Position numbers and translations under genes: made by a program
Notes under the pieces: model-generated
The model's database searches: none
What the model saw: only the letters and a program-made list of their open reading frames with translations
Told to the model about the DNA's origin: nothing
Origin: Desulfobacterales bacterium
GTDB lineage: Bacteria; Desulfobacterota; Desulfobacteria; Desulfobacterales; SURF-7
Length of the DNA: 64,000 nucleotides
Assembly (NCBI GenBank): GCA_046484745.1
Contig: JAWOIJ010000024.1
Coordinates: 2,787 to 66,786, forward strand
Direction: 5' to 3'
Shown: one piece after another, positions 24,222 to 62,551 of the stretch
Position numbering within the stretch: the first letter of the stretch is position 1
Layout: every line of letters starts with the position of its first letter

Positions 24222-25484
24222 ATGATCGAAATTAAAAATGGAAAAATTAAGAATTCGGACATAACCGTTCCGGGTTCTAAAAGTTATACGCATCGTCTCC
24301 TGATTGCGGCAGCGCTCTCAGACGGCATATGTTTCATCGAAAATATGCTCAAAAGCGAAGATACCCTTTTCACGTTGAAAGCATTAAATCAGATGGGTAT
24401 TCAAACCGAGGATTCCGGCAACCTGCTTAAAATCGAGGGTTCGGCAGGGAACTTGAAACCATGCTCCGATCCCATATATCTCGGAAACTCGGGGACCTCC
24501 ATGAGGCTTTTGACAGGGGTTGCCGTGCTTGGGAAAGGAACCTACTCCCTCACGGGCACCAAAAGGATGGGAGAACGTCCCATCGGTGACCTCCTGGAAG
24601 GATTGAGCCAGGTCGGTGTAAACGCGAAATCCATCAATGGGAATGGCTGCCCTCCGGTTGAAATCCGCGGCGGAAACCGTTCAGGTGGAAAGGTTAATCT
24701 CAAGTGCCATATCAGCAGTCAATACCTCTCTTCGCTTCTTCTGATTGCACCATGCTTGGAGAATGGCCTTGAAATAAACGTAACAAAAGGCCCTGTTTCC
24801 AAACCATACATTGATATGACAATTGACATTATGAACCGGCTCGGTGTGGAACTGGAGCGCCAAGGCTACACATATTATAAAATTCCCGGCAACCAGAATT
24901 ACCAGCCGGGAAAATATACGGTTGAACCGGACTGCTCACAGGCAGGTTATTTCTGGGCTGCTGCTGCAATCACCGGCGCGACCATTAAAGTGAACGGCGT
25001 GACAAAAAACTCCCGCCAGGGCGATATCGGATTCGCGGATGTTCTTGAAAAAATGGGATGCACCGTAATCTACGAGAACGATGGGATTACGGTTACCGGT
25101 GGAGAACTGTTCGGCATCGAAGTTGATATGTCCAATATGCCGGATATCGTTCCAACCCTATCCGTTGTGGCTGCCTTTGCAAAAGGAAAAACGATAATTC
25201 AAAATGTTGCCCACCTGAAGGAAAAGGAAAGCGACCGGATCGGATCTGTTGCAAAGGAGTTGAATAAAATGGGGATCGATGCAAAAGCCGGTGAAAGCGG
25301 TCTGGTTATCACGGGGGGCACTCCCAGAGGCGCGGAAATTGAAACGTATGATGATCACCGGATGGCGATGAGCTTTTCAGTAGCAGGACTTGTTGTCCCG
25401 AAAGTACATATCAAAAATGAGGGTTGCGTTGACAAGTCATTCCCCAATTACTGGGAGGTTTTTGGAGGGCTCTATCAATCATGA
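24222..25484 (+). CDS. aroA: EPSP synthase
   Basis: PGSKSYTHR, GNSGTSMR, SSQYLS, KESDR, DDHRMAM, KSFP. Confidence 0.96.
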   Translation: MIEIKNGKIKNSDITVPGSKSYTHRLLIAAALSDGICFIENMLKSEDTLFTLKALNQMGIQTEDSGNLLKIEGSAGNLKPCSDPIYLGNSGTSMRLLTGVAVLGKGTYSLTGTKRMGERPIGDLLEGLSQVGVNAKSINGNGCPPVEIRGGNRSGGKVNLKCHISSQYLSSLLLIAPCLENGLEINVTKGPVSKPYIDMTIDIMNRLGVELERQGYTYYKIPGNQNYQPGKYTVEPDCSQAGYFWAAAAITGATIKVNGVTKNSRQGDIGFADVLEKMGCTVIYENDGITVTGGELFGIEVDMSNMPDIVPTLSVVAAFAKGKTIIQNVAHLKEKESDRIGSVAKELNKMGIDAKAGESGLVITGGTPRGAEIETYDDHRMAMSFSVAGLVVPKVHIKNEGCVDKSFPNYWEVFGGLYQS

Positions 25485-26002
25485 ACATTTATCTCATCGG
25501 GTATCGTTGTACCGGGAAAACAACTGTAGGAAAGATTCTCGCCGGAAAACTCGGGTGGCCGGTTATGGATTCAGATATCGAGCTTGTACATGAAGAGGGA
25601 CGTCCCATATCTGAAATTGTAGAGAGTCAGGGATGGGAGGCATTCCGAAGTATTGAAAAAAACGTAATTCAAAAGCTCAGCTTGCTGGATCATCATGTGA
25701 TTGCAACCGGAGGCGGTGCCGTGTTGAATGGCGAGAATGTCAGCACGATGAAAAAAAGTGGAAAACTGGTATGGCTCAAGGCAACGCCTGAAACCATACA
25801 CAGAAGAATGACCATGGACTGCGAGACCGAAAAATCAAGACCGGCACTGACGGACAAGGGGGTTTTCGGGGAGATAGAAGAAACGCTGAACATCCGAAAT
25901 CCCATTTATCAGGCAGCCATGGATATTGCCATTGATACGGATCAGCTGACGCCTGAAGATATTTGCAGCATTATCCAGGAAAAGCTGACAGGTGAACCAT
26001 GA
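25481..26002 (+). CDS. aroK: Shikimate kinase
   Basis: GYRCTGKTT P-loop, FRSIE, ATGGG, RP. Confidence 0.92.
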   Translation: MNIYLIGYRCTGKTTVGKILAGKLGWPVMDSDIELVHEEGRPISEIVESQGWEAFRSIEKNVIQKLSLLDHHVIATGGGAVLNGENVSTMKKSGKLVWLKATPETIHRRMTMDCETEKSRPALTDKGVFGEIEETLNIRNPIYQAAMDIAIDTDQLTPEDICSIIQEKLTGEP

Positions 26003-26023
26003 TCTGCCCGAAAAGGAGAGGCT

Positions 26024-27076
26024 ATGCCCGGTAACACCTTTGGAAAATTATTCAGGATAACAACCTTTGGAGAATCTCATGGAAAGGCTGTTGGTGTCGT
26101 AATTGACGGCTGCCCTCCAAAGATCCCTCTTGACGAGCAGATCGTTCAAACAATGCTTGATCAAAGACGTCCGGGTAGATCCATTGCAAGTACAACCCGA
26201 AAAGAACAGGATCAGGCGGAGATCCTGTCAGGGATATTTGAAAACAGGACAACCGGAACACCCATAACAATCCTGGTAAAAAACAAGGATGCCGACTCAT
26301 CATCCTATCAGGGCATCGCAGATTTATTTAGACCCGGGCATGGTGATTTTACCTATCAGGCAAAATATGGAATCCGTGACTTTCGAGGAGGAGGACGCGC
26401 CTCTGCTCGTGAAACGGTTGCACGGGTGGCCGCCGGTGCAGTTGCCGGGGCTGTTCTATCAAAAATCGGGACAGAGGTCTCAGCCTATACGATAGAACTT
26501 GGAGGTATAAAAGCCCGAAAGCGTGATGCCGATGAGATCACAAACAACATGTTCTGCTGTCCGGATTCCGTCGCAGCCGGGAAAATGGAACACCGTATAA
26601 ACGAAGTTCGCAAGATGGGGAACTCCGTTGGCGGTATTGTTGAAATTATCGCAAAAGGTGTTCCGAAAGGGCTGGGAGATCCTGTTTTTGACAAACTGGA
26701 TGCAGGTCTTGCCGGAGCATTGATGAGCATAGGGGCTGTAAAAGGTGTTGAGATCGGAGCGGGTTTTCGTGCTGCCGGCATGCTCGGATCTGAAAACAAC
26801 GATCCGATTACACCAGAGGGATTTGAAACAAACCATTCAGGAGGCATTCTGGCGGGTATTTCAAACGGAGATCATATCGTCATCCGTGTGGCGGTAAAAC
26901 CCATACCCTCTATAGCCATTGATCAAAAAACGGTTGATCGTTTTAACAAACCGAAAACGGTTTCAATACAAGGAAGACATGACATATCCGCAATTCCCAG
27001 AATAAATGTCGTCTGCAAAGCCATGGTTCAACTTGTGCTTGTCGATCATTTACTCCGGCAGAATGCGATTTCATGA
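26024..27076 (+). CDS. aroC: Chorismate synthase
   Basis: [38 protein letters not shown]. Confidence 0.97.
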
Positions 27077-31824: not shown

Positions 31825-32207
31825 CGGCTCTTTTTTCCTCAGGTTGTGGTTTTTCCAGAATTCGAGTGTCCAATAATATAGAATTTGTTATCATTTTGCA
31901 ATCCTGTTTTTTTTTGCCATGATTTCCTGAGTTTGTACAGGATCAAAACAAACCAGAATTTAAAATTGATTCATAAGCGGATTTAAAAATTCAAAAAAAA
32001 CTTGCTTTTACCTTCAAATTCGTTTTATATGACCACATGGTCACTTTTTTTAAAACAACATACAACCTGAATTCATTGAATGCGATTTCTTCAACAAGCG
32101 TGCAAATCAAAGGACCATGATCCGATACAGAATATAGATGAAAAAATAACGTTTTTTTGTGGATCCGCTTACAGTTGCAAACACGGAAAACAACAGTGGT
32201 GTTATCA

Positions 32208-33845: not shown

Positions 33846-33920
33846 TCAAGAGAAATAAAAGGCCCGGAACGCTTTAACCGATAAACCAAAATAATAACCT
33901 CAGGTATGGTAGAGTTAACC

Positions 33921-36900: not shown

Positions 36901-39900
36901 CTGCTGGAATTCCGAACGAACCGGAAAAGGCGGCCCGGGCTTCCGCATCCAACACCGACGTCATCGCAGAAGCCTTGAAAGTTGTTTCAGAAAGCCTGAA
37001 ATCCATGCAGGCCCTTCAAACCCAGACAGCCGAAACGCATAAAAAATTTCTGGAGACGCAATCGGACGCGAGCCGCAATCTTCAGAAAATGATGGACAGA
37101 ACCCGCAGCCTGGCAGAGGCGTCCCTGGGATTTCGGCCGATGCTGCCGGAAACCGGATACTTACAGACAGCTCCGCCCGCTGATCTCCTGTCGGAAAAAA
37201 CAGAACATTTCATAACTGAAACCATTTTAGAAACCACCGCCCCCTCTTCCCATCGATCTTATCATGAGATATCGGCCGCTGAAAAAACCGATCTCACGCG
37301 TGTTGACAGTGAGGATATTAAAAGCAATATATTGGATGTTGTCAGTGAGCTGACCGGCTATCCGGTAGAAATGCTTGAGACCGATATGGATATCGAAGCC
37401 GATCTTGGGATCGATTCCATTAAACGGGTTGAAATCCTGTCAACCCTGGAAGAAAAGCTGCCGAATATCGGTCCGATCTCACCGGAAATGCTCGGAGAGA
37501 TGAAAACCCTTGGTCAAATCATCGATTATCTCTCTCAAACAAACGGAAAAACCCCTCCGGCTCCTGAAACCCTTGAAACCGCCTCAACACATTCCAGAAA
37601 AAAAATGGAAATCGCCATGCTTCAGGTTGTCAGCGAACTGACCGGATACCCCGTGGAAATGCTGGAACCGGACATGGATATCGAGGCGGATCTCGGCATT
37701 GACTCGATCAAGCGGGTTGAAATTCTTTCCGCGTTTGAGGAAAAAATGCCCGGACTGCCGCTGATTTCAACTGAGATTATGGGAGAACTCAAAACACTCG
37801 GGCAGATCATCGACTACCTTGCGGAACTTTCCGGAACCGGCCAGACCGAGGTCTCTGCTGCTGCCGCCTCCCCAGGTTCCCGCGACAAAATGGAGCAGAC
37901 CATGCTTCAGGTTGTCAGCGAACTGACCGGATACCCCTTGGAAATGCTGGAACCGGACATGGATATCGAGGCGGATCTCGGCATTGACTCAATCAAGCGG
38001 GTTGAAATTCTTTCCGCGTTTGAGGAAAAAATGCCCGGACTGCCGCCGATTTCAACTGAGATTATGGGAGAACTCAAAACACTCGGGCAAATCATCGATT
38101 ATCTTGCGAAACTTTCCGGAACCGGCCGGACCGAGGTCTCTGCTGCTGCCGCCTCCCCAGGTTCCCGCGACAAAATGGAGCAGACCATGCTTCAGGTTGT
38201 CAGCGAACTGACCGGATACCCCTTGGAAATGCTGGAACCGGACATGGATATCGAGGCGGATCTCGGCATTGACTCGATCAAGCGGGTTGAAATTCTTTCC
38301 GCGTTTGAGGAAAAAATGCCCGGACTGCCGCCGATTTCAACTGAGATTATGGGAGAACTCAAAACACTCGGGCAGATCATCGATTATCTTGCGAAACTTT
38401 CCGGAACCGGCCGGACCGAGGTCTCTGCTGCTGCCGCCTCCCCAGGTTCCCGCGACAAAATGGAGCAGACCATGCTTCAGGTTGTCAGCGAACTGACCGG
38501 ATATCCCGTGGAAATGCTGGAACCGGACATGGATATCGAGGCGGATCTCGGCATTGACTCGATCAAGCGGGTTGAAATTCTTTCCGCGTTTGAGGAAAAA
38601 ATGCCCGGACTGCCGCCGATTTCAACTGAGATTATGGGAGAACTCAAAACACTCGGGCAGATCATCGACTACCTTGCGGAACTTTCCGGTACACCCAAAC
38701 CGGACAAGAATCTCCAGATGGATCATGGCGAAGATTCTTCTCTTGATGTTTCATATACTTATCCATCAGAATTTAAAGAACAACATGAAGTTGATCTGGA
38801 AGATGTTGAACGTCAGGTTGTCTCCCTTGTCGAGAAACCCTTCAACAGGGGTCGGCAACTTATTGTTCCAAAAGATCGAATTGTTTATATCCTGGATGAT
38901 CAAACCGGTCTTGGAAAAGAGATTGCCTTTGTGCTTGAAAACCGGGATATCCGGACCGAATTGATACCCGGAGATCTGTTTGCGGATACTGAAAGCCTGA
39001 AAGACAACCTGCGCAATGCGGGCGGGCTGATCCTGATACCGGATGTCGATCTTCTAACAGACAAATTCAATCAGAAAACCATCTGGAACGAAAAAGATGT
39101 GCAGTTTCTGAAAAATTCATTTATTGCGGCAAGCCTGGCTGCAAAAGATATCATCCATTCCGCATCCAATGGAGGGGGCCTTTTGACAACGATAACCCGT
39201 CTTGACGGCTGTTTGGGTTTTTCCGGAAAGGGAGTACTACACCCCATTCAGGGAGGACTTGCCGGTCTTGTAAAGACAGCTTCCATGGAATGGGAAAATG
39301 TTTGTTGCCACGCGATCGATATCGCTCCTGCCTGGAAAGATAACAAAGAAGCTGCTCTGGCCGCGGTCGATGAAATCTTGAACCCTGGTCCAGTTGAAGT
39401 CGGACTGGATAAAAATTCACGATATCTGCTCATGCTGGCCCCATCGACTTCTCCGGAAGGAAAAATCCTGCTCAATGAAAAGGATGTGGTACTTGTAACA
39501 GGAGGTGCAAGAGGCGTGACCGCTGCCTGTTCATATACACTGGCAAAGCATGCCAAACCAACCATTATTTTGATGGGTCGCTCCCCCCTGCCCGCTCCGG
39601 AGCCCCATTGGCTCGAAGGGATAACCGACGAAGCCGCGATCAAAAAATCCATTATTCAAAATGAATTTTCCGGGCAGAAAGTAACGCCCGTACAAGTTGA
39701 CAGTGTATTCAATAAATATATGGCCGGCCGTGAAATCATGAAAAACCTCTCCCGGTTGAAATCAACCGGAGCAACCGTTGACTATATATCGCTTGATGTT
39801 CGAAATTCGGACTCCGTCATTTCCGTGCTCGAAGAGATCCGAAACAATTACGGCCCGATTCGGGGGCTGATTCATGGTGCCGGTGTTCTGGAAGATCGAT

Positions 39901-41192: not shown

Positions 41193-41236
41193 CGTGTTGC
41201 CACGAATTTTTGACATTAACCTGTTTTCAGAGGAAA

Positions 41237-44200
41237 ATGAGAAAATACCCACCCATTGCGGTTGTCGGGATGGCCGGGATATTACCCGGCGCTTCCAGCA
41301 TAGAAAGCTTCTGGCAAAATATCATCAATAAGGTAAGTGCCATTTCAAGGGTCCCGGAGGGACGATGGATTGTCGAGCCTGAAGCGATCCATGCGCCCGG
41401 ATATGAAAATGACAAGGCATGTTCTCTGTATGCCGGATTGATTCATCATTTCAAATATAATCCGGAAGGAATCGATATTGATCCGGACATGGCGCAGAAC
41501 CTTGATCCGTTATATCAGCTTGTCCTTTCCGCGGGAAGGGACGCGCTTCAGGAATGCCGGATTTCAAACCTCGACAAAAAACGAACCGGTGTGGTTCTTG
41601 CCGCAATTGCGCTGCCGACAGATGCATCATCCACGCTGACTAGAGAGATACTGGGGCGCGCCTTTGAATCAAGGCTGCTTGAAGAGCTGAAAAAAAATCA
41701 TCTGATCAACGATTTTGAAACAGATTCTTTTCATCTTTCGCGTTATCACAGCCTCTCATCCCGTGTAACCAGCCTTCCGGGAGCGATGCTGGCAAAAGGT
41801 CTTGGACTGGGTGGCGGCAGCTTTACCCTGGATGCAGCATGTTCATCTTCTCTGTATGCCGTCAAGCTGGCCTGTGACGAACTCAATGCGAAACGAACGG
41901 ATATCATGCTGGCAGGCGGCGTTTCCCGCCCGGAATGCCTGTATACGCAGGTTGGATTCACGCAGCTGCAAGCTATTTCCCCCACCGGGAGATGCGCCCC
42001 GTTTGATAAAACCGCCGATGGTCTTGTCGTTGGTGAAGGAGCCGGTATTTTTGTCCTGAAGAGACTTGAAGATGCCTTGCGGGATCAAAACGACATTCTG
42101 GGATTGATTCACGGCACAGGCCTTTCAAACGACATTGGCGGGAACCTTCTGGCACCTGACAGTGAAGGTCAGATCCGGGCGATGAAAGACGCTTATCAAA
42201 AGACAGGATGGCATCCCCATGAAGTTGAACTGATTGAATGCCATGGAGCCGGAACACCGGTAGGTGACGGAATTGAGCTGGCAAGTCTCAGATCTCTCTG
42301 GGGAGAGTCCGGCTGGAAAAAAGAACAATGCGCCATCGGTTCCATAAAATCCATGACCGGGCATCTTCTCACCGGCGCGGGAGCCGCCGGCATGATTAAA
42401 ACGCTGCTCGCGCTTAAACATAAAGTGCTTCCTCCCTCTCTCAATTTCTCAAGCCCTTCCGACAAAAGCCCGCTGATTGACAGTCCTTTCCGGGTCCAGA
42501 CCCGTACGGATGAATGGACGCGAAAAGATAAAAAACCGTTAAAAGCAGCGGTGAGCGCGTTCGGTTTTGGCGGCATCAATGCCCATCTGCTTTTTGAAGA
42601 GTGGAATCCGGAATTATTCAACCCGGAAGTCTATATTCGAAACCCGGCCGCGGATCTCTCCGGCAGCGAAGATCGCCAGCCACCCGCCGCGGTAAGTGAA
42701 AGAACCGGGAATGAGAAATTGCCGCCCGTTGCCGTCACCGGAATGGGCGCCCTGTTCGGGAAATCGGATTCTCTGAAAAAATTTCAACAAACGATTTTTA
42801 ACGGAAAAAACATATTCAACAAAAGACCGCAAAACAGATGGGGCGGAAGTGACGAAACAGCAGATCAACTGCTTGGGACCTCTGTCGATTTTGGTTCTTT
42901 TATCGAAGAGCTTTCGGTTTTTATCGGTGAGTTTCATATACAGCCCAATGAGATTCCGGATATGCTTCCCCAGCATCTCCTGATGCTGAAAGTGGTATCC
43001 AATGCCATGGCGGACGCAGGCCTTCCTCACCGTAAAGACCGTCCAAGAATGGGTGTTACCATTGGAATGGAGTTTGACCCGGAAGCGACAAATTTTCATC
43101 TTCGCTGGAATCTGTACAATGAAATCAAAAAGTGGAAAGAAAAACATAAGCTTACTCTCAGTGACAAAGAGACGGCGAACTGGCTCGAATCCGTCCGCAA
43201 TGCCTCAGGCCCTCCCCTTACATCCGCCCGAACCGTAGGCGCTTTAGGCGGAATCATTGCAAGCAGGATCGCGAAAGAATTTCGATTTGGCGGTCCAGCT
43301 TTTGTCGTCTCCTGCGAAGCTTCATCCGGCATCAAGGCACTTGAAATAGGCGTTCGCTCTCTTCAGCTTTCAGAGACCGATGCCTTTCTTGTGGGTGCTG
43401 TCGATCTTCCGGCCGATGTTCGCAACATGGTTGCAGTGGATAACATTCGCCCCTTTACCCGAGAAAAAACCTGTCATCCGTTTGACGCGAAAGCAGATGG
43501 AACGCTTCCCGGTGAAGGAGCTGCCGCAGTGGTATTAAAACGGCTGGATGATGCCATTTCCGACGGCGACAGAATCTATGCGGTAATAAGAGGCATCGGC
43601 AGCGCCGGCAGTCAGGGGATTGAAATTCCGATGCCTTCTTCGGAAGCGTATCAGCTTTCTCTGGAGCGGGCTTTCAAAGACGCCGCCATTCCTGAAACCT
43701 CTATCAGCTATATCGAAACACATGGCAGTGGAGACAGGGCTGAAGATGATCTGGAAGCTGACGCCTTAAACTCCTTTTTCAATTTCAGCAAAAATCATCC
43801 ATCCAGTTTAACCGACATCAATTCCATCGCGATTGGATCGGTCAAGGCAAATATCGGTCATACCGGTGCGGCTGCCGGACTGGCTTCTGTCGTAAAAACC
43901 AGCCTCTGTCTGTATCATGAAATTATCCCCCCCTTATCCGGTTTTATATCTCCCAAATCCAGCAACTGGGACAACGGGCCGTTTCACTTCCCCTTTTTCC
44001 CGCACTTCTGGATGAGAAATCGGCAGGATGGCCCAAGAAAGGCCTGTGTCGCCTCCATGACAATGGACGGCAACTGCAGTCATGTGCTTTTAGAGGGTTT
44101 TGACTATCTTACGGATGTCTTAAACAAGGACCTTCTTCAAAAAATCGAGTGGGAAAGAAAAAGACCGCTCGGCATCGAATCGGCTGGGCTCTTTGTTGTA

Positions 44201-47200
44201 GAAGGAGATCAAAAAGAAGAACTCATTGAGAATCTTGACGCCCTGTACCAGTTTGTTCACGACTTCTCCGACAAGGAGGAGAACATGGAAATGGTGGCCC
44301 GTGCATGGTACGCCAAAAATCCTCTGGATCCTTCGAAAAACCATTCTGTTTCGTTGATTGCCGAAAACAGCTTCAACCTGGGAAAGTGGATCAAAGAGGC
44401 CAAAAAAGCGATTCTTTCCGATACGGAAAGAAAAATAAACGGTTCTTTCGGCATCAAATACAATCCAGAACCAATAGGAAATTCAGGTGATATCGCCTTT
44501 GTCTTTCCCGGATCCGGAAATCACTATGTGGGCATGGGCAGAAAAATCGGTACAACCTGGCCGGAGACGTTGAGAAAAATGGATGCCGAAACCATGAGGC
44601 TTCGCACCCAGTTCATACCAGACCGATATGTTCCCTGCCGCACCTCATGGGATACCGGATGGGAGGCCGAAGCGCACAAAGATCTTGTCTCAAACCCTCT
44701 CAACCTGATCTTTGGACAGGTAGCTCACGGCAGTGTTGTGTCAAATCTTATCCGGGAAATGGCTCTGGAGCCTTCGGCTGTAATCGGCTACAGCCTGGGA
44801 GAATCAGCCGGTTATTTCGCACTGGGCGCATGGCCTGAACGAGGCAGCATGCTGGAGAGACTGGAAGATTCCAACCTTTTCCGCACTGAACTGGCCGGGC
44901 CCTGTAATGCCGCGCGCAAGGTGTGGAAAATTCCGGCCGCGGATGAGGTTGACTGGTGCGCTGCGACCGTCAACCGGGATGCCGGTCGTGTGAAAACCGT
45001 ATTGCGGAAATTTCCAGAGGCCTATCTTCTGATTGTCAATACCCCCAGTGAATGCGTGATCGGGGGACGCCGACCCCAGGTGGAAGCCGCCATCAAACGG
45101 CTTGGCTGCGATGCTTTTTTCCTGGAAGGTGTGGTTACCGTTCACTGTGCCGCCGCGGTTCCGGTCAAGGAAGCGTACCGGGAACTGCATGTTTTTCCCA
45201 CACACCCACCGGAAGGCATCCGATTCTACAGCTGCTCTTTTGAAAAAGCACCTGAAAAAATCACAACCAAATCGACGGCAACCTCCATACTCAATCAGGC
45301 GCTCTTTGGTTTTGATTTTTCGGCAACCATCCGGCAGGCCTATAAAGACGGTGTAACCATTTTTCTGGAGATGGGGCCTCACGCATCCTGCTCCCGAATG
45401 ATCGATGCGATTTTAGAGGATCAGCCGCACTTTGCGATTTCCGCGTGTTTAAAAGGCGAGGATACTTATCTTACCCTGCTTAAATTTCTGGGTTCTCTCA
45501 TTGCCGAAAGGGTCACCCTCAATCTTGACCAACTGTATGGTGAACATACCTATCCCCAAAAAATATATACAAAGGATATTCAAAAAACCGGCCGGCAGAT
45601 TACCCTGCACATCGGCGGGAGATCATCCAAACCGCCGCTTCCAAAACTCCTCTCCAGGCAGGTGGAAAATCAGATACAACGCCGGGAACCCTTTAGAGAG
45701 ATTCAGACGGTTTCCTATGATTTCGAGGCGGCGCTCTCTTCAGCGGATTTTGGAACACTGTCCGAACATCCTTATGTGGAACTATTGGACACGGTGAGAG
45801 AAAATATGGCCGCCATGTCGGAAGCGCATAATGAATTCCTTTCGTTTTCCAGCCATCTCAACAAGGCTTTTGCCCAGGCCGTTGATTTTCAGACCAGTCT
45901 TCTCGAGCAACTGGTTTCATCCAATGACGGCGCTTCTCTTGCAGAAATTCAACGCCTGAAAAAGGTTGAGAATGATACACGCGTTTCTTCAGCCCGGACG
46001 ATTATAACAGAGCAGCCCCCTCCTCAGAAAATCACAAAACCCGCCTTTTCCCGGGAGATGTGCATGGAGTTCGCGACAGGCTCTGTTGGAAAAGTGCTTG
46101 GACCGGAGTTTGCGGTAGTGGATTCCTATAAAGCGAGAGTAAGGCTTCCGGACGAACCGCTTATGCTGGTGGATCGAATCCTTTCGGTAAAGGGCGAAAA
46201 AGGGTCGATGGGTTCCGGAGAACTGGTAACTGAACACGATGTCCACCCGGGAGCCTGGTATCTGGATGGCAACCGGGTGCCTGTCTGCATATCGATTGAG
46301 GCAGGCCAGGCAGACCTTTTTCTATGCGCTTACCTGGGAATCGACCTCAGGGTAAAGGGGAAACGGACTTATCGCCTTCTGGATGCGATCGCGACCTTTC
46401 ACCATGGACTGCCCCAACCCGGGGATGTGATCCGCTACGTTATTCAAATCGAAAAATTTATTCGGCAGGGAGAAACCTATCTCTTCTTTTTTCATTTTAA
46501 CGGCTATATCGGAGATACCCACATTATCAGTATGAGAAACGGCTGCGCGGGGTTTTTTACAGAAGAAGAGGTTAAAAATTCCGGCGGGATTGTTCTGACT
46601 GAAAAAGAAAGGCAAAAGATCCCCGGGAAAAAGCCTTCAGGCTGGAAAGATCTGGTTCCCATGGAGGTCGAATCCTATGATGACGAGGGCATCGACGCGC
46701 TTCGAACCGGAGATGTTGAAAAATGCTTTGGTCCCCTGTTCCGCGATATCACCCTTGCCAGGTCCATATCACTGCCGTCCGGAAGGATGAAACTGATCGA
46801 TCGGGTTCTGGAACTGGATCCCACAGGCGGTCGATTCGGTCTGGGTGTCATACGGGCCCAGGCGGATATTCATCCAAACGACTGGTTTCTGACATGCCAT
46901 TTTGTCGATGACATGGTGATGCCCGGAACCCTGATGTATGAATGCTGCGCTCACACGCTGCGCGTTCTTCTTCTCCGCATGGGATGGGTAACTGAAAAAC
47001 AGGGCGTTTGCTATGAACCGGTTCCCAACGTCGGTGCTGTTCTCAAGTGCCGGGGTCCGGTTACACCGGAAACAAAACACGTCTTATACGAAGTTTCCAT
47101 AAAAGAGATCGGCTATTCCCCTGAACCGTATGTGATTGCAGATGCCATCATGTATGGGGATGATGAACGGATTGTCATTTTTCAGGACATGTCGATGAAA

Positions 47201-48427
47201 ATGACCGGTTTGACACGACAGGAGATCGAAGCCTTCTGGGCCAAAAGAGAAAAAGGCAGGTCCCATCCGCGCTTATCCTGCGAAAAGCCGACGATCTACA
47301 CCCGCGAGCAGCTTCTGGCCTATGCGATCGGAAATCCCAGCGAAGGGTTTGGCGACCGGTATAAAATCTTTGATCAGGAACGGAAAATCGCAAGACTTCC
47401 AGGACCGCCCTACTTTTTTATGGACCGAATCACCCATGTGGAACCTGAACCCTGGGTCCTGAAACCATCCGGATGGATTGAAGCGGAATATACCATTCCA
47501 CCTGACGAGTGGTATTTCCGGGCCAATCGGGTTCCGGAAATGGCTTTCTGCGTACTTCTCGAAATTGCCCTGCAGCCTTGCGGATGGCTCGCAGCCTACC
47601 TTGGATCCGCGCTGCGGAGTGAAACCGATCTGAAATTCAGAAATCTTGGAGGAAAAGCGATTCTCCATGAAAATATCATGCCCGATTTTGGAACGCTGAC
47701 CATGAGAGCCAGGCTTACAAAAGTATCGGAAGCCGGAGGCCTCATTATTGAAGAGTTTGACATGGAAGTCCTGAGAGAAAATCAAATCATATATAAAGGG
47801 GATACGGTTTTCGGTTTTTTTACCGCGGAAACCCTGGCAAACCAGGTGGGAATCGGAAATGCTTCCAGGATGGCGTATTCCCCCACGCCGGATGAAATCA
47901 AACGCGGAACATTCCATAGGCTTGAAGATGAAGCCCCGCTTTTCCCGGAAGATCCGGATCTCCATGATGCAGCTCCGGCAGCCATGCCGGCAAAGGCGCT
48001 CCGCATGATTGACAGGATCGATCTCTATGTGCCGGATGGCGGCCCCGAAGGGCTCGGGTTTATCCGGGGAATCAAAGAAATTGATCCAGATGAATGGTTT
48101 TTCAAAGCGCACTTCTACCAGGACCCGGTATGTCCGGGGTCTCTGGGGATAGAATCCTTTATTCAGCTCATGAAATTCGCGGCCCTTGACCGCTGGAAGG
48201 AGTTAACCGAAACCCACACCTTTGAATTTGTCACCGGAAATGAGCATACCTGGCTTTACCGTGGACAGGTTATCCCCACGAACAAAATCGTGGAAGTGGA
48301 TGCCGTTATCACCCGGGTCGAGGATTCCACCTCTCCGGCCCTGTTTGCGGACGGCTTCTTGAAGGTGGATGGACTGTTTATCTACCAGATGAAAAATTTC
48401 GGAATCAGGCTGGTGCCGAAGAAGTAA
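41237..48427 (+). CDS. pfaC: PfaB/C-like PUFA synthase (KS-CLF-AT-FabA-type DH domains)
   Basis: DAACSSS/ECHGAGT; second KS with non-canonical SCEASS; AT GYSLG; DH motifs CHFVDDMVMPG and AHFYQDPVCPG. Confidence 0.9.
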   Translation: MRKYPPIAVVGMAGILPGASSIESFWQNIINKVSAISRVPEGRWIVEPEAIHAPGYENDKACSLYAGLIHHFKYNPEGIDIDPDMAQNLDPLYQLVLSAGRDALQECRISNLDKKRTGVVLAAIALPTDASSTLTREILGRAFESRLLEELKKNHLINDFETDSFHLSRYHSLSSRVTSLPGAMLAKGLGLGGGSFTLDAACSSSLYAVKLACDELNAKRTDIMLAGGVSRPECLYTQVGFTQLQAISPTGRCAPFDKTADGLVVGEGAGIFVLKRLEDALRDQNDILGLIHGTGLSNDIGGNLLAPDSEGQIRAMKDAYQKTGWHPHEVELIECHGAGTPVGDGIELASLRSLWGESGWKKEQCAIGSIKSMTGHLLTGAGAAGMIKTLLALKHKVLPPSLNFSSPSDKSPLIDSPFRVQTRTDEWTRKDKKPLKAAVSAFGFGGINAHLLFEEWNPELFNPEVYIRNPAADLSGSEDRQPPAAVSERTGNEKLPPVAVTGMGALFGKSDSLKKFQQTIFNGKNIFNKRPQNRWGGSDETADQLLGTSVDFGSFIEELSVFIGEFHIQPNEIPDMLPQHLLMLKVVSNAMADAGLPHRKDRPRMGVTIGMEFDPEATNFHLRWNLYNEIKKWKEKHKLTLSDKETANWLESVRNASGPPLTSARTVGALGGIIASRIAKEFRFGGPAFVVSCEASSGIKALEIGVRSLQLSETDAFLVGAVDLPADVRNMVAVDNIRPFTREKTCHPFDAKADGTLPGEGAAAVVLKRLDDAISDGDRIYAVIRGIGSAGSQGIEIPMPSSEAYQLSLERAFKDAAIPETSISYIETHGSGDRAEDDLEADALNSFFNFSKNHPSSLTDINSIAIGSVKANIGHTGAAAGLASVVKTSLCLYHEIIPPLSGFISPKSSNWDNGPFHFPFFPHFWMRNRQDGPRKACVASMTMDGNCSHVLLEGFDYLTDVLNKDLLQKIEWERKRPLGIESAGLFVVEGDQKEELIENLDALYQFVHDFSDKEENMEMVARAWYAKNPLDPSKNHSVSLIAENSFNLGKWIKEAKKAILSDTERKINGSFGIKYNPEPIGNSGDIAFVFPGSGNHYVGMGRKIGTTWPETLRKMDAETMRLRTQFIPDRYVPCRTSWDTGWEAEAHKDLVSNPLNLIFGQVAHGSVVSNLIREMALEPSAVIGYSLGESAGYFALGAWPERGSMLERLEDSNLFRTELAGPCNAARKVWKIPAADEVDWCAATVNRDAGRVKTVLRKFPEAYLLIVNTPSECVIGGRRPQVEAAIKRLGCDAFFLEGVVTVHCAAAVPVKEAYRELHVFPTHPPEGIRFYSCSFEKAPEKITTKSTATSILNQALFGFDFSATIRQAYKDGVTIFLEMGPHASCSRMIDAILEDQPHFAISACLKGEDTYLTLLKFLGSLIAERVTLNLDQLYGEHTYPQKIYTKDIQKTGRQITLHIGGRSSKPPLPKLLSRQVENQIQRREPFREIQTVSYDFEAALSSADFGTLSEHPYVELLDTVRENMAAMSEAHNEFLSFSSHLNKAFAQAVDFQTSLLEQLVSSNDGASLAEIQRLKKVENDTRVSSARTIITEQPPPQKITKPAFSREMCMEFATGSVGKVLGPEFAVVDSYKARVRLPDEPLMLVDRILSVKGEKGSMGSGELVTEHDVHPGAWYLDGNRVPVCISIEAGQADLFLCAYLGIDLRVKGKRTYRLLDAIATFHHGLPQPGDVIRYVIQIEKFIRQGETYLFFFHFNGYIGDTHIISMRNGCAGFFTEEEVKNSGGIVLTEKERQKIPGKKPSGWKDLVPMEVESYDDEGIDALRTGDVEKCFGPLFRDITLARSISLPSGRMKLIDRVLELDPTGGRFGLGVIRAQADIHPNDWFLTCHFVDDMVMPGTLMYECCAHTLRVLLLRMGWVTEKQGVCYEPVPNVGAVLKCRGPVTPETKHVLYEVSIKEIGYSPEPYVIADAIMYGDDERIVIFQDMSMKMTGLTRQEIEAFWAKREKGRSHPRLSCEKPTIYTREQLLAYAIGNPSEGFGDRYKIFDQERKIARLPGPPYFFMDRITHVEPEPWVLKPSGWIEAEYTIPPDEWYFRANRVPEMAFCVLLEIALQPCGWLAAYLGSALRSETDLKFRNLGGKAILHENIMPDFGTLTMRARLTKVSEAGGLIIEEFDMEVLRENQIIYKGDTVFGFFTAETLANQVGIGNASRMAYSPTPDEIKRGTFHRLEDEAPLFPEDPDLHDAAPAAMPAKALRMIDRIDLYVPDGGPEGLGFIRGIKEIDPDEWFFKAHFYQDPVCPGSLGIESFIQLMKFAALDRWKELTETHTFEFVTGNEHTWLYRGQVIPTNKIVEVDAVITRVEDSTSPALFADGFLKVDGLFIYQMKNFGIRLVPKK

Positions 48428-56156: not shown

Positions 56157-56852
56157 TCAGGGATCAAATAAAAATTCAATGGAATTCAAACCGCCGCTGA
56201 TTTCAAACGTGAGCATCTGGGCAAGGGCATTTAATATCACAATGGCGTTTTTGTCCGCGTCCTTTTTTGCGATACTGCCTGTTCTGTCAAGAATTCCCCG
56301 GTTAACCTGCTGAACCTTGTCATAGTGTTCATCCAGTTTTTCAAGCTCGAGGTCCGGTTTCCGGCCCTTTTTATATTCAAAATACTGCCGGAGCAGATAG
56401 ATTGATGTTGATCGAAAGATGGTTTCCTGAATCGTTGAAAACGGCAGATGGAATCTGGCCATCGGCTTGAAAAAATTCATGATCGGGCAATTACTGGTCG
56501 CCATGATAATGCCAAAGATTGAAAACAGCCCTTCCTGAATCGCGGCTTCCCGAAGATAGGTTCGTTCGGGCGTGATGCATTGAACAACGCAATTATCCGA
56601 AGAAATTTCATCTTTAAACTCTTCAATAAGCTCTGCAATATTGACTGCAATCGGACAGTAGGGAACCGCCTCCTTTGTGATGGGGCAGCAGGCGCACTGA
56701 TGAAACTCCAATTTTGCCCAATCCGGCCTGAGCTCCTTGGTTCTGGAAATAAGGGTAATGGTGTCCGGATCCAGCAGGATATCGAATTGTTTTGTTTTTC
56801 CATTTTCAAACTGGAATTTGTAGGTAATTCGGTATGGTACTTTTTCTTCCAT
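56157..56852 (-). CDS. Cys-rich hypothetical protein (DUF6901-like)
   Basis: WAKLEFHQCACCP..YCP, SNCP, KPMARFHLPF. Confidence 0.7.
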   Translation of the reverse strand: MEEKVPYRITYKFQFENGKTKQFDILLDPDTITLISRTKELRPDWAKLEFHQCACCPITKEAVPYCPIAVNIAELIEEFKDEISSDNCVVQCITPERTYLREAAIQEGLFSIFGIIMATSNCPIMNFFKPMARFHLPFSTIQETIFRSTSIYLLRQYFEYKKGRKPDLELEKLDEHYDKVQQVNRGILDRTGSIAKKDADKNAIVILNALAQMLTFEISGGLNSIEFLFDP

Positions 56853-56874: not shown

Positions 56875-57522
56875 TTACGGTTCAATTTTTTTCAATGCCC
56901 TGGCCAAAGCGTTTTTATGAAGCTCGGCAGCCAGATGGACCGGACTTTTGCCATATATCGGATCCCAGTTCGCAGGATCAGCGGTGCAGAAATACTGCGT
57001 TTCAAGACCCATTGTAATCAATGCCTGATCAGCCGGAAGGTGTAATACTTTTTTTGCAGCCTCCCATGTTGCCCCGCACGGAGCACCTTTCAGGACTTCT
57101 ATACGGACGATCCTATCCTTCTCCATCTTCAATTGAAATTCAGGATTCCCGAACTTTTCACCATATACTCCAAGACAGACCTGCCTTGCAAGTGCGCATC
57201 ATGTCGGAGGTGTGATAACGCCCTCAACCCGGGTTTTTTTACCGGAAGCGACTACCGGAATATTACGCTTTCGGCACATCAGCGCAAGATCGTGCGAAAG
57301 GTCCGGGTGCTGTGTAAAGTCAAGCACCAGATCCGCCTCGATGTTGTCCGGTAAATATTCAACCGCATTGTCAACAACCGGCGGGAGGGAGACATCTATT
57401 GAAATGGTATGGATCTTAAATCGATCCTGTCCATACTTTCGAATGCCCGCGATCTTGCTTTCTCCCCGCTTGCCTTGCTGGAAAACAAGAATAACCTGTT
57501 TTTCATCATTACCGTTTTTCAT
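56875..57522 (-). CDS. DUF166 family selenoprotein (UGA at 57199-57201 read as Sec), 215 aa
   Basis: ORFs 57199-57522 and 56875-57132 are in one frame joined by 22 sense codons: VITPPT-U-CALARQVCLGVYGEKFGNPEF; GAPCGATW; SECIS-like hairpin follows the UGA. Confidence 0.82.
57163..57198 (-). promoter_or_regulatory. Bacterial SECIS-like hairpin
   Basis: UGA-UGCGCACUUG-CAAGGCAG-GU-CUGUCUUG-GAGU; apical GGUC begins 17 nt after the UGA. Confidence 0.7.
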
Positions 57523-57587: not shown

Positions 57588-58973
57588 CTATAAAACAAGC
57601 TCCTGGATAAATCGTGTAAGCTGATTCAGATTCTGACAGGGGCGCACCTCATGACAATACGCCTTGTACAGATTCATTTCGCTGTCGCCGGAATTCCAGA
57701 ATCGTTCCGGCTCCGGATTCAGCCAGACGACCCGACGGCATTTTTCTCTCATCTCACCCAGAATCTGATCCTGAGGATTAAAATGATTTGACCGGCCGTC
57801 ACCGACAATGATCAGGGTCGTTTTTTTATTCAGAACATCCATATAGTTCTTTTTAAAGCGGACAAACGTTTCTCCGTAGTCGGTGAGCGCTTCATAATTG
57901 ATATCCGCTTCTTCCATAACCTTTTCCACCGCTTCATTGATTTCATTTTTTTCAAAAATCTGCGTCACATCGGCAATCTCCGATACAAAGACAAAACTTC
58001 TGACCTTGCTGAAGCAGTCCTGAAGGGAAAATAACATGTTGAGCATAAACCGTGCCGCAGACCAGACCGATCCCGACACATCACAAATGGTAACGATTTT
58101 ACCCTTTCGCGGAGGACGTTTTTTATAAATCACTTCGATGGGTATCCCTTGATAACGGCCTGCCCGTCGCAAGGTTTTTTTGACATCTAAAACACCTCTG
58201 TTTCTGGAAGCCCACCTTCGGGTGATCATGTCATTCATTTTTCGGACAAGCTGCTTGATAACCTCGCGCATTTCCTCTACTTCGCGTTGAGAAAGAGAAG
58301 AAAAGAATTTTTCTCCAAGGCCCTTCTTTTCGTCAGCCCCGGTATCCAGCCGTTTCAGGCTTTCATTGTCGGGCTTCACTTCTTCTGTCAGCATGTTCAA
58401 TGCCTTGTCAAGCCGCTGGTTGAAAAATTCAGATGCTTTCCGTTCTGACCCGCTGCCGGCCACTCCGGATTTTCCTTCCATAAACCGCATGATTCTGCTT
58501 CTTGTCCGGTTGATCGCAAGCATAATCTCAAGACGTCCGGACAAACCGCTCAGATTGGACTTGAGGATCTGTGAAGAAACCTCCTCCTGATTTTTCAGCT
58601 GCTGCAGTTTTTCAAGAAACAACAGCGGGTCTCCGGACAGGAAATCAACAAGTGCTTCTTCAAGAGAATTTCCCTTTTCTTCATCGCGCAGCCTGTTCAG
58701 AATTTCCTCATGCAAACCAGGCCCTTTTGTTTCCATATTCATTGCGTCAAGCGCTGGTGTCAGAGAATGGAAATACAGGGCGTACAGCATTTCAAAATGG
58801 CTTTGATCTCGACGGGTTTTTACAAAATTGGTGTTCAAAACCGCCTTGAACTGTGATTCATCCGTCAGGTTGATCAGGTTTAGCTGGGATATGCAGTCAA
58901 GTACTTCCGAAGTGGATATTTTTAAATCCGACGTTCTGCACACGGATACAAATTTAAGGATCAGATCAACCAT
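57588..58973 (-). CDS. VWA domain protein, CoxE-like
   Basis: CDVSGSV MIDAS, TDYG, GDGRSN, WLNPEP. Confidence 0.88.
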   Translation of the reverse strand: MVDLILKFVSVCRTSDLKISTSEVLDCISQLNLINLTDESQFKAVLNTNFVKTRRDQSHFEMLYALYFHSLTPALDAMNMETKGPGLHEEILNRLRDEEKGNSLEEALVDFLSGDPLLFLEKLQQLKNQEEVSSQILKSNLSGLSGRLEIMLAINRTRSRIMRFMEGKSGVAGSGSERKASEFFNQRLDKALNMLTEEVKPDNESLKRLDTGADEKKGLGEKFFSSLSQREVEEMREVIKQLVRKMNDMITRRWASRNRGVLDVKKTLRRAGRYQGIPIEVIYKKRPPRKGKIVTICDVSGSVWSAARFMLNMLFSLQDCFSKVRSFVFVSEIADVTQIFEKNEINEAVEKVMEEADINYEALTDYGETFVRFKKNYMDVLNKKTTLIIVGDGRSNHFNPQDQILGEMREKCRRVVWLNPEPERFWNSGDSEMNLYKAYCHEVRPCQNLNQLTRFIQELVL

Positions 58974-58984
58974 ATTTCAGATGT

Positions 58985-59896
58985 TCAGCTTTGAATGATT
59001 GTGGAGATCGATCGTTTCACCAAATCCGTGTCTGACCGATACTTGCAGATCACATTCAGCGTATCGATCACAACCTCGGGTGACAGGTCGTCAATCTGAA
59101 GTGCGATGAGAGAATGCGCCCAATCCAGGGTTTCCGAAATGGAAGGCGGCTTTTTCAGATCCATTTCACGAATTTTTATAATCGTATCTACGAGCCGGCT
59201 AATCAGTGCCTCCCGGATGCCGGGAACTTTCATTTTGACAATCATGGATTCCAGTTCATGGCCCGGATAATCGATGTAAAGATGCAGACAGCGTCGTTTG
59301 AGGGCGTCGCTCATGTCCCGGTAGTTGTTGGAGGTTAAAACGACAAAAGGGATTTGGATGGCTTTTCGGGTTCCAATCTCCGGTATGGAGACCTGGAAAT
59401 CACTTAGAAGCTCGAGAAGAAATGCTTCAAATTCAGGGTCTGACTTGTCCACCTCATCGATCAGCAGAACAACCGGTTCCGGTGAGCTGATTGCCTTCAA
59501 AAGAGGTCTTGTCTGGATAAAACGTTCTGAAAAGAATGCGTCTTCCTGATCCGCTATTTTATCAACCGCTTCGGAAAGTGATTTGGATTCCGATATAACA
59601 TCCTGGATTCTCTCCTTGACGATTTGCGTGTAGAGAAGCTGTTTTGCGTATTCCCATTCATAGAGGGCTTTGGCCTCATCCAGGCCTTCATAGCATTGAA
59701 GCCTGATCAACTCCCGGCCGAGGGTTTTCGCGACCGCTTTGGAAAGTTCGGTCTTGCCGACGCCAGCAGGACCTTCCACGAGCATGGGCTTTTGAGTCGC
59801 ATCTGCAAGAAACACAATCGTTGCAATCTCTTTTGATGCAATGTAGTTGGCTTCCGCGAGCCTTTTTTGAACATCTTCCACACTCTTGAATTTCAT
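58985..59896 (-). CDS. MoxR family AAA+ ATPase, CoxD-like
   Basis: EGPAGVGKT, RLQCYEGLD, LLIDEVDK, SDALKRRC. Confidence 0.92.
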   Translation of the reverse strand: MKFKSVEDVQKRLAEANYIASKEIATIVFLADATQKPMLVEGPAGVGKTELSKAVAKTLGRELIRLQCYEGLDEAKALYEWEYAKQLLYTQIVKERIQDVISESKSLSEAVDKIADQEDAFFSERFIQTRPLLKAISSPEPVVLLIDEVDKSDPEFEAFLLELLSDFQVSIPEIGTRKAIQIPFVVLTSNNYRDMSDALKRRCLHLYIDYPGHELESMIVKMKVPGIREALISRLVDTIIKIREMDLKKPPSISETLDWAHSLIALQIDDLSPEVVIDTLNVICKYRSDTDLVKRSISTIIQS

Positions 59897-60001: not shown

Positions 60002-60676
60002 CTATTTTATTCTAAATTTTTCTCGCCATTCCTCGCGGCCGTCTCTAAAAATCACCTCATCCTTATTGATTTTTGCAACGACGATTCCATCACAGGTCTG
60101 CCCCTCTCGAAAGATTCGATTGTTGATCACGGCAAAGCTTTTTGTCGAATCTTCCGCCCATACAAGCGCCTGAAGTTCGATTCGCGGGTCGTTCTTCAAT
60201 TTCGGCAGAAAAGGCTGATTATTCTCCTCACGGCCGGCGGGAATTGTTTCGATATTGTTGGATTCTGGTTGTTTTGTCGAAAGTAAGCCCCTTTCAGTCA
60301 TTGGCTTTTTTCCAACCACGGGAGGCTTTTGCTGGATCGATCGTGTGTTCTCCGGGAAAATCTTTTTTTCAGGCAGGCGGAACCGTTCCTGGAGTGCGTC
60401 AGTATCGTTTTTCCGGCTCAATGCCGCCTTGACTTGCTTTTCTTTTGTCAACGTGTTCACGGCCTGCGTTGAATCCCGAAAGGAGTAAAAAATGAACCCC
60501 CCTGAAAAAAGAAACAAAACCATGAACAGGAGTAAAAAAAACATGGCGTTATTTTTGAAACGGATTCTTTTTCCTCTCTCCTTCATGAATTGAAACGAAT
60601 CCGGCCAACCCTTTTCGCTGTGTTTTTCGGCTCCCTCGTGTTCAAGCTTCTTCAGGGCTTTTAATATCGAGCTCAA
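60002..60676 (-). CDS. GspB/ExeB-like protein
   Basis: MSSILKALKKLE N-terminus, single TM, FAVINN..REG C-terminal domain; abuts exeA. Confidence 0.8.
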   Translation of the reverse strand: MSSILKALKKLEHEGAEKHSEKGWPDSFQFMKERGKRIRFKNNAMFFLLLFMVLFLFSGGFIFYSFRDSTQAVNTLTKEKQVKAALSRKNDTDALQERFRLPEKKIFPENTRSIQQKPPVVGKKPMTERGLLSTKQPESNNIETIPAGREENNQPFLPKLKNDPRIELQALVWAEDSTKSFAVINNRIFREGQTCDGIVVAKINKDEVIFRDGREEWREKFRIK

Positions 60677-62551
60677 TTATCCTCCGGTTGAATGCTGCCT
60701 TTCATCAATACCATGCCCGGGTTCAGGCGGTAAAATACGAGGAATGTTAAAATCCCGGCCTTCATTATACAAAACAATTCTCGTGAGAGGACCGACAATT
60801 CCGTCTTCAATGAGTCCATATTTCTTCTGTATGTCGGTCACGGCATTTTTAGCCGATTCATCATAAAAAGGACTCATGACGATCTCACGATAACCGATCT
60901 CCCGGAGATGCATTTTCAGCGTCAGGATGGAGTCTCTTGTCGTATTGATCGGTATGATACCCGAGTAGTTGTAAAAATTTTTCCAGATAACATAAAAAAC
61001 TCCGGTCCAGTATTTGGAAAGCTCGCTTTCGTTCACCGAAATTTTCCCGTTGTCAAACTCCAGGATCATGCTGGTGCCCTGTATCCTGGAAAGGAGCAGA
61101 TATTTGGGGGATAATCCTCCGGGAATAAACAGTTCCATGATTGCCGGGTGATTCAACACCTTGATCAGGTCGAGATCACCTTCCAGCTTTTTCGAATTCA
61201 GGTTGTTCTGTTTGGCTGCGAGCCTGAAGAACGACTGATCATCATCGATATCATTTAAAAAATACTTGACCCCGGTTTCAGCCCTCCAGAGGTCAAATGC
61301 ACGGTTTGCCGCAAATTTTCTGGAATCTCTTGAATTGAGGGCGTGTAAAACATCCGGCAGGGGCCTCAGCTCAACATCGTCCGGATTCAATGCGTCATCC
61401 GGTTGATATTCACCCTCACTGTCCACGGCCTCTGCACCGGCAATCCCTTCCGCTTCTGCCGTAATGCGTGTATTGATCTCTTTGTCAAAGACGGGTTCCG
61501 TGGATTCGCTATCCAACGAGGAGGAAGCCGAATCAGAGGCTGTAGAATATGGTTTTGGTGAAAGCGGTTTTTTCTTTTTCTCTGGGATATCTATTTTATA
61601 AACCCTGTATTCCTTTTTGGCTGTTTCGGAAACTTTTTCCAATATCTCCGGAGGATACAAAATAAACAGCAAAAGGACCCCGGCAAGTACAGCCAGAAGC
61701 GAAATCGACTTTTTCCCAAAGCCCAGCATCCCGGCAACCGGCATTCCTTTCCCCGAAAGCTCTTCAATAGCGGACATGACAATATTACCCGTAATTTTCT
61801 TTTTACTGCTGCTGTAAGCAGTCAGAAGAGCCCGGTCACAGGTGATATTGATTACCCTGGGGATCCCTTTTGAAAACCGGTACACGGCGCGGCATGCGTT
61901 TCGAGTGAATCGAACCCCTTCCCGGTGAGACGCGATTCTGATTCGATGAGCAATATATTCTCTTGTCTCTTTAGGTGTCAGGGGATGCAGGTAGCAATTC
62001 AGCGTGATTCGCTGCGCCAGCTGCCTCAGTTCAAATGAATCCAGCATTTCATCCAGCTCGGGCTGTCCCACGAGTATAATCTGTAAAAGCTTGCTGGTGG
62101 TTGTTTCCAGATTGGAGAGAAGCCGCAGCTGCTCCAGAACCTCCTTGCTGAGATTCTGGGCTTCGTCGATTAAAATGATAGCCTTTTTGCCCTCTGCCTT
62201 GATCCGCATCAGGAAATCATTCAGGTGATCGATCAGCTCTTTGGTATTTTCCCCCGAGGAATCAATGCCGAATTCATCATTAATGGTTTTCAGCAGTTGA
62301 ATCGAATCCAGTTTTGGATTAAAAATGTAGGCGACTTCGCTGCTTTCATCGAGCCTTTCGAGAAACATTCGACAAATCGTTGTCTTCCCGGTTCCGACCT
62401 CCCCGGTGATGATGACGAATCCATCGCCTTGCCGAACCGCATAATTCAAATGACCAAGCGCTTCCTCATGGCTCCTGCCCAGGTACAGAAAGGCAGGATC
62501 CGGCACGAGCTTGAATGGTCTTTCCTTAAATCCGAAAAATGGTTTATACAT
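60677..62551 (-). CDS. ExeA/GspA family AAA ATPase with peptidoglycan-binding domain
   Basis: MYKPFFGFKERPF, GEVGTGKTT, IDEAQNL, GQPEL, TM, C-terminal QKKYGLIEDGIVGP. Confidence 0.9.
   Translation of the reverse strand: MYKPFFGFKERPFKLVPDPAFLYLGRSHEEALGHLNYAVRQGDGFVIITGEVGTGKTTICRMFLERLDESSEVAYIFNPKLDSIQLLKTINDEFGIDSSGENTKELIDHLNDFLMRIKAEGKKAIILIDEAQNLSKEVLEQLRLLSNLETTTSKLLQIILVGQPELDEMLDSFELRQLAQRITLNCYLHPLTPKETREYIAHRIRIASHREGVRFTRNACRAVYRFSKGIPRVINITCDRALLTAYSSSKKKITGNIVMSAIEELSGKGMPVAGMLGFGKKSISLLAVLAGVLLLFILYPPEILEKVSETAKKEYRVYKIDIPEKKKKPLSPKPYSTASDSASSSLDSESTEPVFDKEINTRITAEAEGIAGAEAVDSEGEYQPDDALNPDDVELRPLPDVLHALNSRDSRKFAANRAFDLWRAETGVKYFLNDIDDDQSFFRLAAKQNNLNSKKLEGDLDLIKVLNHPAIMELFIPGGLSPKYLLLSRIQGTSMILEFDNGKISVNESELSKYWTGVFYVIWKNFYNYSGIIPINTTRDSILTLKMHLREIGYREIVMSPFYDESAKNAVTDIQKKYGLIEDGIVGPLTRIVLYNEGRDFNIPRILPPEPGHGIDERQHSTGG

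Follow-up and report, generated by a model that had tools for sequence, protein, structure and literature searches.

Selenoproteins of the DUF166 family have already been catalogued. Zhang and Gladyshev (2007, PMC1976440) first reported such a selenoprotein, as 'Conserved protein COG1810', in the delta-1 and delta-4 symbionts of Olavius algarvensis, and the legend of their Fig. 5D refers to a predicted SECIS element for the COG1810 family. Two reviews list the DUF166/COG1810 selenoprotein family, with a dash in the redox-motif column of the entry. NCBIfam holds an equivalog model, NF041372 ('DUF166 family (seleno)protein DfsP'), with a curated cut-off of 200 bits, and some homologue records at NCBI are already named DfsP. 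In the literature on the DUF166/DfsP family, we found no experimental report of selenocysteine (Sec) insertion. Genetic data exist for an archaeal family member: in the passages on duf166 of a preprint on Methanococcus maripaludis (10.1101/2024.03.05.583561), the knockout is described as unable to fix CO2 and the gene as cofit with CODH-ACS and CooC2.

The window analyzed here is a 64,000-nucleotide stretch of a contig from a Desulfobacterales bacterium. On its minus strand, at 57522..56875, lies a DUF166 gene that translation table 11 renders as two open reading frames (ORFs). The first, of 107 amino acids (57522..57199), terminates at a TGA at 57201..57199. Past the TGA, no stop interrupts the next 22 codons of the frame (residues 109-130; 57133..57198, minus strand), which lead up to a TTG that begins the second ORF, of 85 amino acids (57132..56875). 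If the TGA is decoded as Sec (U), translation yields one protein of 215 residues (215 codons plus a stop), with the motifs ..PPT-U-CAL.. at residues 105-111 and ..APCG.. at 147-150 and a mass of 23.84 kDa, computed with Cys replacing Sec. The initial annotation had described the 22 open codons and both motifs, and had proposed that an in-frame UGA links the two ORFs into one DUF166 protein. Both descriptions agree with the minus-strand sequence: the translation is continuous, and a single Pfam model runs across the TGA.

Specifically, PF02593 (DUF166) matched residues 12-211 over profile positions 1-220 of 221 (E = 6.6e-43; 147.3 bits, gathering threshold 24.4 bits), and NF041372 matched residues 9-211 over profile positions 1-203 of 203 (320.9 bits). 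A profile search of the source genome with NF041372 gave 314.5 bits with one TGA, and DfsP is the only DUF166 gene in that genome. Members of the DfsP subfamily have Sec or Cys followed by Cys at a conserved column; here the pair is U108-C109. Based on these data, the 57522..56875 interval is very probably an intact gene for a DfsP-subfamily DUF166 selenoprotein. Compared with the 2007 description and NF041372, the protein resembles the DfsP and COG1810 proteins of the O. algarvensis symbionts in its full-length match, its Sec column, and the SECIS-like hairpin that follows the UGA. Nothing of substance distinguishes it from known DfsP, and the gene order MoxR-VWA-DfsP-DUF6901 is peculiar to the source genus.

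The gene is another orthologue of a catalogued selenoprotein family. The finding is correct but already known, as the family was described in 2007 and is covered by a curated model. The statement in the initial annotation that DUF166 is a predicted Sec-containing family is in agreement with NF041372 and with the COG1810 entry of PMC1976440. The protein is not a 'hidden' selenoprotein, however, given the curated NCBI model and the NCBI records that bear the DfsP name.

Searches of other collections added little. The two fragments and the joined protein were absent by exact look-up in the protein collection. Searches of the PDB by sequence and by profile found nothing beyond weak similarity to designed ankyrin repeats, taken here as compositional noise, and an ESM Atlas search with a natural Cys-form homologue returned no usable match. 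Rfam yielded no relevant match near DfsP and none over threshold anywhere in the window. One 1701-residue 'relative' with 15 matching stretches (P0173) was rejected as spurious: its ORF is repetitive, rich in Pro, Leu, and Cys, and matches no Pfam family. Several family members carry the JGI label 'thymidylate synthase'. At one Cys-form DfsP locus (L040), a weak match to ThyA-like thymidylate synthase (E = 2.5e-10) follows DfsP in the same orientation, approximately 560 nt downstream.

An open frame over a TGA is common in itself. A survey of the six frames of the window, requiring 60 or more codons on either side of the TGA, identified 24 ORF-TGA-ORF arrangements. A single Pfam model spanned the TGA in one of these, the DfsP locus. 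Another (25481..27073) consisted of two ordinary genes; among the remaining 22, two had sub-threshold chance matches and 20 had none. At 25481-27076, the genes for shikimate kinase and chorismate synthase share a frame, and the TGA at 26000 plus some 20 codons separate them. This candidate selenoprotein was rejected, as it represents two ordinary genes.

At the DfsP locus, the stretch between the two ORFs is coding in the frame of the UGA and contains no start codon within its 22 codons. Among 25 Sec forms, pairwise differences over codons 1-15 after the UGA were 0.234, 0.203, and 0.514 at codon positions 1, 2, and 3, respectively. Over the same 15 codons, amino-acid identity was 0.68 in the UGA frame, compared with 0.41 and 0.39 when the two alternative frames were read. 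Residues C109, L111, Y120, F124, G125, P127, and E128 were unchanged across 45 aligned proteins.

The position of the UGA is shared among relatives. DfsP was found in 20 of the 41 nearest (order-level) genomes, in 16 cases with one in-frame TGA and in four without. When 401 genomes of the phylum were sampled, the NF041372 cut-off was exceeded by 50 matches in 49 genomes, 24 of these matches having one TGA and 26 none; weaker DUF166 matches in this sample contained no in-frame stop. The TGA occupied an identical column in all TGA-bearing relatives compared (16/16 at the order level and 9/9 at the phylum level, 25/25 overall), these genomes being related and hence non-independent samples. The check that the initial annotation had proposed, for Cys at the UGA position of homologues, was borne out in each TGA-less relative (4/4 order-level and 7/7 phylum-level, 11/11 overall). 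A U-C or C-C pair is therefore invariant in the 36 DfsP loci, with 25 U and 11 C. Across the wider DUF166 family the column is variable. Of 38 full-length representatives, 17 have Cys, 12 have Phe, and 9 have some other residue there, and in the phylum each of 22 more distant DUF166 genes encodes Phe or Leu. Thus, the vicinal U-C motif noted previously is present at residues 108-109 but is restricted to the DfsP subfamily.

The DfsP family occurs widely among sulfate-reducing bacteria and related groups and has switched repeatedly between Sec and Cys. The Sec forms did not separate from the Cys forms in a quick tree but were interspersed with them, and parsimony required eight changes, at least two of them forced by supported branches. 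The Cys forms are not caused by loss of the Sec trait, as selA was present in 10 of 10 Cys-form genomes tested. One genome (G376) has sister DfsP copies, L044 and L045, one with Sec and the other with Cys. The Cys copy is flanked by genes for an HdrA-like flavoprotein and an MvhD/FlpD-ferredoxin protein.

A predicted SECIS hairpin lies at 57171..57188 on the minus strand, with a 7-bp stem, a GGUC loop, and 17 nt from the UGA to the loop. The initial annotation had placed a hairpin directly after the UGA with a GU loop; the hairpin is present at 57188..57171, but a 2-nt loop cannot form. The 27-nt segment of the window folds at -8.4 kcal/mol. Considered singly, this fold is unremarkable (z = -0.60), with 51 of 200 shuffles folding equally well, so the significance of the hairpin rests on comparison with relatives. 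In the 25 Sec forms, the consensus is a 6-bp stem with a 6-nt loop, located at columns 14-19/26-31 after the UGA, and an invariant GG opens the loop. Cells in the stem columns of the Sec forms paired at 93.3%, a value reached by 0 of 500 shuffles and compared with 20-70% in slid controls. The same columns paired at 36.4% in the 11 Cys forms, no better than the controls. Similarly, 25 of 25 Sec forms versus 4 of 11 Cys forms folded at or below -7.5 kcal/mol over the 27-nt segment. Covariation was seen in just two of the six stem pairs: pair 15:30 (CG 13, AU 9, GC 1) and pair 18:27 (GU 11, GC 10, AU 1, CG 1). As the stem overlaps codons, some of its conservation could be at the protein level.

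The GGUC loop presumably resembles that of the E. coli fdhF element. The hairpin after the in-frame UGA of the selD gene of the source genome is comparable and also has GG in its loop. As set out in the relevant passages of a 2026 review (PMC13188914), a bacterial SECIS element (bSECIS) has an apical loop of 3-9 nt, an upper stem of 4-16 bp, a G in the first two loop positions, a distance of 16-37 nt from the UGA, and a minimum free energy of -7.5 kcal/mol or lower. The DfsP hairpin agrees with this consensus on every point, and we found no difference from it. The distance of 17 nt confirms the normal SECIS spacing claimed in the initial annotation, and the comparison with bacterial SECIS criteria that it had suggested was likewise favorable, the hairpin being retained in UGA forms only.

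The source genome encodes the machinery for Sec insertion. A tRNA-Sec was detected over its cut-off (74.3 bits), and ARAGORN reports a tRNA-SeC with the anticodon tca. Each of selA, selB, and selD also scored over its cut-off. All four sel genes that had been named for checking were therefore found. The selD gene (L009, contig C14) is itself a selenoprotein gene, with an in-frame UGA in ..KASG-U-ASK... In the proposed mechanism, the mRNA hairpin, starting 10 nt past the UGA, would recruit SelB carrying Sec-tRNA(Sec), and UGA-108 (57199..57201) would be read as Sec to give a protein of approximately 24 kDa. Judged from the comparative sequence data, Sec decoding at UGA-108 is almost certain.

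The most widely conserved residues of the protein lie outside the Sec column. Three Cys residues, Cys109 (57196..57198), Cys149 of the APCG motif (57076..57078), and Cys179 (56986..56988), were invariant in 38 of 38 full-length representatives, and His196 (56935..56937) was present in 35 of the 38. All four were kept in 22 of 22 distant DUF166 loci of the phylum. As the Cys3-His set is kept where column 108 varies, it constitutes the core of the family, and U/C108 is a subfamily feature. The N-terminal half gave sub-threshold matches only, to NAD(P)-binding Rossmann models. The protein may consist of a Rossmann-like alpha/beta region at the N terminus and a C-terminal region that bears Cys109, Cys149, Cys179, and His196. 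These four residues would form a metal- or iron-sulfur-binding centre, and Sec108, directly beside its first ligand, could serve as an extra ligand or as a redox-active residue.

The evidence from the family as a whole suggests a metal or cluster centre used in assembling or repairing metalloenzymes or in supplying electrons to them. No link to CODH/ACS or Suf was found for DfsP, and for this reason we hold the assignment of its Cys3-His set as a putative metal or Fe-S centre only tentatively, at somewhat less than even likelihood, and the selenenylsulfide alternative considered below as a lesser possibility. Leads toward the function are the family-wide Cys3-His set, the CODH/ACS and Suf contexts of other clades, and the MoxR-VWA-DUF6901 setting of this locus.

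In the window, DfsP is the third of four genes on the minus strand. A MoxR-type AAA+ ATPase gene (58985..59896; Pfam AAA, AAA_5) is followed by a VWA (CoxE-like) gene (57588..58973; Pfam VWA_CoxE, E = 2.7e-36), which ends 65 nt upstream of DfsP (56875..57522), and a DUF6901 gene (56157..56852; PF21842, E = 6e-79) begins 22 nt downstream. The DUF6901 gene and DfsP are probably co-transcribed; a scan for promoters and terminators gave counts no higher than in shuffles. The order AAA-VWA-DfsP-DUF6901 occurs in three of three genomes of the source genus, and VWA lies upstream of DfsP in those three alone. Adjacency of DfsP and DUF6901 is somewhat broader, at 5 of 20 order-level loci in two genera. 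Among 20 other DUF6901 loci fetched, four from sister genera (L082, L084, L085, and L087) have AAA-VWA-DUF6901 without DfsP and a VWA-DUF6901 spacing of 100-260 nt; DfsP therefore sits inside an older module in the source genus. In the 16 loci without AAA-VWA, the neighbours of DUF6901 were variable. Of 20 genomes that have DfsP, 16 also encode DUF6901, as do 9 of 21 that lack DfsP, the genomes being related and thus not independent. A literature search found no paper mentioning DUF6901.

The MoxR and VWA genes resemble CoxD/CoxE-type pairs in their AAA/AAA_5 and VWA_CoxE domains and in their adjacent arrangement. Unlike CoxD/CoxE, they have no CO dehydrogenase gene beside them in the window. 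CoxD/E and similar MoxR-VWA pairs insert metal cofactors. We also considered MadB and MadC, the nearest NCBIfam equivalogs, as identities for the pair and rejected them: the MadB model scored 346.6 bits on the MoxR gene (cut-off 475) and the MadC model 173.1 bits on the VWA gene (cut-off 600), both under the equivalog cut-offs. The MoxR-VWA-DUF6901 context fits a role for DfsP in maturing or serving a metalloprotein. This is the weakest step of the argument, and the MoxR-VWA link of DfsP is confined to one genus.

A more far-reaching version of the metal-centre assignment is that Sec108 joins the Cys3-His set as a metal or Fe-S ligand or relay, that DfsP acts with MoxR/VWA on the Cys-rich DUF6901 protein, and that DUF166 proteins are general accessories for metallocluster assembly or repair. 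We consider this unlikely as a whole. If true, the system served by DUF166 accessories would differ between clades, being CODH/ACS or Suf elsewhere and the MoxR-VWA-DUF6901 module in the source genus.

The alternative that fares best against the metal-centre assignment, and that is close to the view of the initial annotation, is that DfsP is a thiol/selenol oxidoreductase in which a vicinal Sec108-Cys109 selenenylsulfide cycles between redox states and the other Cys and His residues are structural. Mammalian thioredoxin reductase, with its vicinal Cys-Sec, offers a comparison. Such an activity would be consistent with the invariance of the U-C or C-C pair in the 36 DfsP loci and with the redox context of one non-DfsP clade, found near an FMN-reductase-LMWPc fusion, a flavodiiron protein, and rubredoxin. 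Passages of the reviews also hold Sec/Cys exchange to be typical of redox-active sites, although their entry for this family, with its dash, gives no redox motif. Against it, all 22 distant loci have Phe or Leu at column 108, and Cys occurs there in just 17 of 38 representatives. As Cys109, Cys149, Cys179, and His196 are conserved more widely than column 108, the core function of the family cannot depend on the vicinal pair. Overall, a selenenylsulfide oxidoreductase appears somewhat unlikely.

Less probable still is that DfsP is a CODH/ACS accessory factor, like the archaeal and cdh-linked DUF166 proteins. The M. maripaludis knockout and cofitness data, in the parts of 10.1101/2024.03.05.583561 that concern duf166, provide one argument for such a role, and the context of distant bacterial DUF166 genes provides another. 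The latter was assessed in 23 loci, which come from few genera and hence are not independent; L057, on a 3.3-kb contig, was left out of the counts as it had no tblastn match to the DfsP query. Six of the 23 loci lie inside cdh-type CODH/ACS operons (L058-L060, L066, L068, and L069), and at a further five CdhD is encoded no more than 5 kb away. Others adjoin SufBD/SufC (three loci), an FMN-reductase-LMWPc fusion (seven loci), a flavodiiron protein with a flavin-reductase-rubredoxin fusion (two loci), or a CbiA/MinD-type ATPase (one locus). In the distant clade comprising L062-L065, L067, and L071-L073, the flanking genes encode SufBD/SufC and an FMN reductase fused to a low-molecular-weight phosphatase/ArsC-like domain, with the flavodiiron protein and rubredoxin fusion at two loci. 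ACS is also encoded in the source genome.

The context of DfsP is different. None of the 36 DfsP loci scanned had a CODH/ACS or Suf neighbour, and linkage to CODH/ACS or CooC, the hallmark of an accessory DUF166 of the M. maripaludis type, was found in 0 of 36. The neighbours of DfsP in these loci vary, including ABC-F (four loci), TetR (three), AFOR (three), and others. A strong match to CdhC (ACS) was as common without DfsP (16 of 21 genomes) as with it (15 of 20), and the phylogenetic profiles therefore provide no link. M. maripaludis MMP_RS05055 and the bacterial cdh-operon DUF166 proteins belong to the same Pfam family as DfsP and have the three Cys and one His in common with it, the archaeal protein being compared by its description. 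The cdh-operon proteins differ from DfsP in sharing only ~23-28% identity, in having Phe or Leu at column 108, and in a His-rich stretch before the third Cys that DfsP lacks. At column 108, Phe or Leu takes the place of Cys or Sec in both the CODH-linked and the Suf-linked clades. To the extent that the archaeal gene is covered by the cited passages, CODH/ACS linkage is a trait of the M. maripaludis and cdh-operon DUF166 proteins and not of DfsP, and a CODH/ACS accessory role for DfsP is improbable.

Finally, a gene broken by a nonsense mutation or sequencing error, or two separate genes, with a 107-residue and perhaps an 85-residue piece being made, would account for the two table 11 ORFs, the frequency of TGA-bridged pairs in the window (24), and the fragments reported by generic gene callers, but is very unlikely given that the same TGA column recurs in 25 genomes of many families and a TGA in 24 of 50 phylum-sample matches, that the 22 start-less codons between the pieces are conserved as protein, that the hairpin is kept just where the TGA is, and that the Sec machinery is complete.

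The fragments themselves bear on annotation. Of the 150 cluster representatives listed at 50% identity, 25 comprise just an N-terminal piece whose last residue immediately precedes the Sec column, and another 30 just a C-terminal piece. Thus, the expectation that pipelines would split the gene holds for generic gene callers, which to this day cut the DUF166 DfsP family at the UGA, but not for the NCBI rule set, which covers the family. In the window, the two ORFs should be merged as one selenoprotein gene.

Two other regions of the window were noted. Upstream of the MoxR-VWA-DfsP-DUF6901 module, the 60002-62551 region encodes an ATPase with a peptidoglycan-binding domain, which scored 313.4 bits against the cut-off of 324.5 for the XrtA/PEP-CTERM-associated ATPase, as well as a small GspB-like protein. 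The 32157-48427 region holds a PUFA-synthase-like (Pfa-type) cluster that includes an enoyl-reductase-like gene. Its products include a 2405-aa protein with KS and FabA-like domains (two matched stretches each) and a 2428-aa KS-AT-ACP(n)-KR protein, the ACP domains of which are encoded by a tandem repeat at 37615-38689 (285 nt, 3.8 copies, 98% identity).
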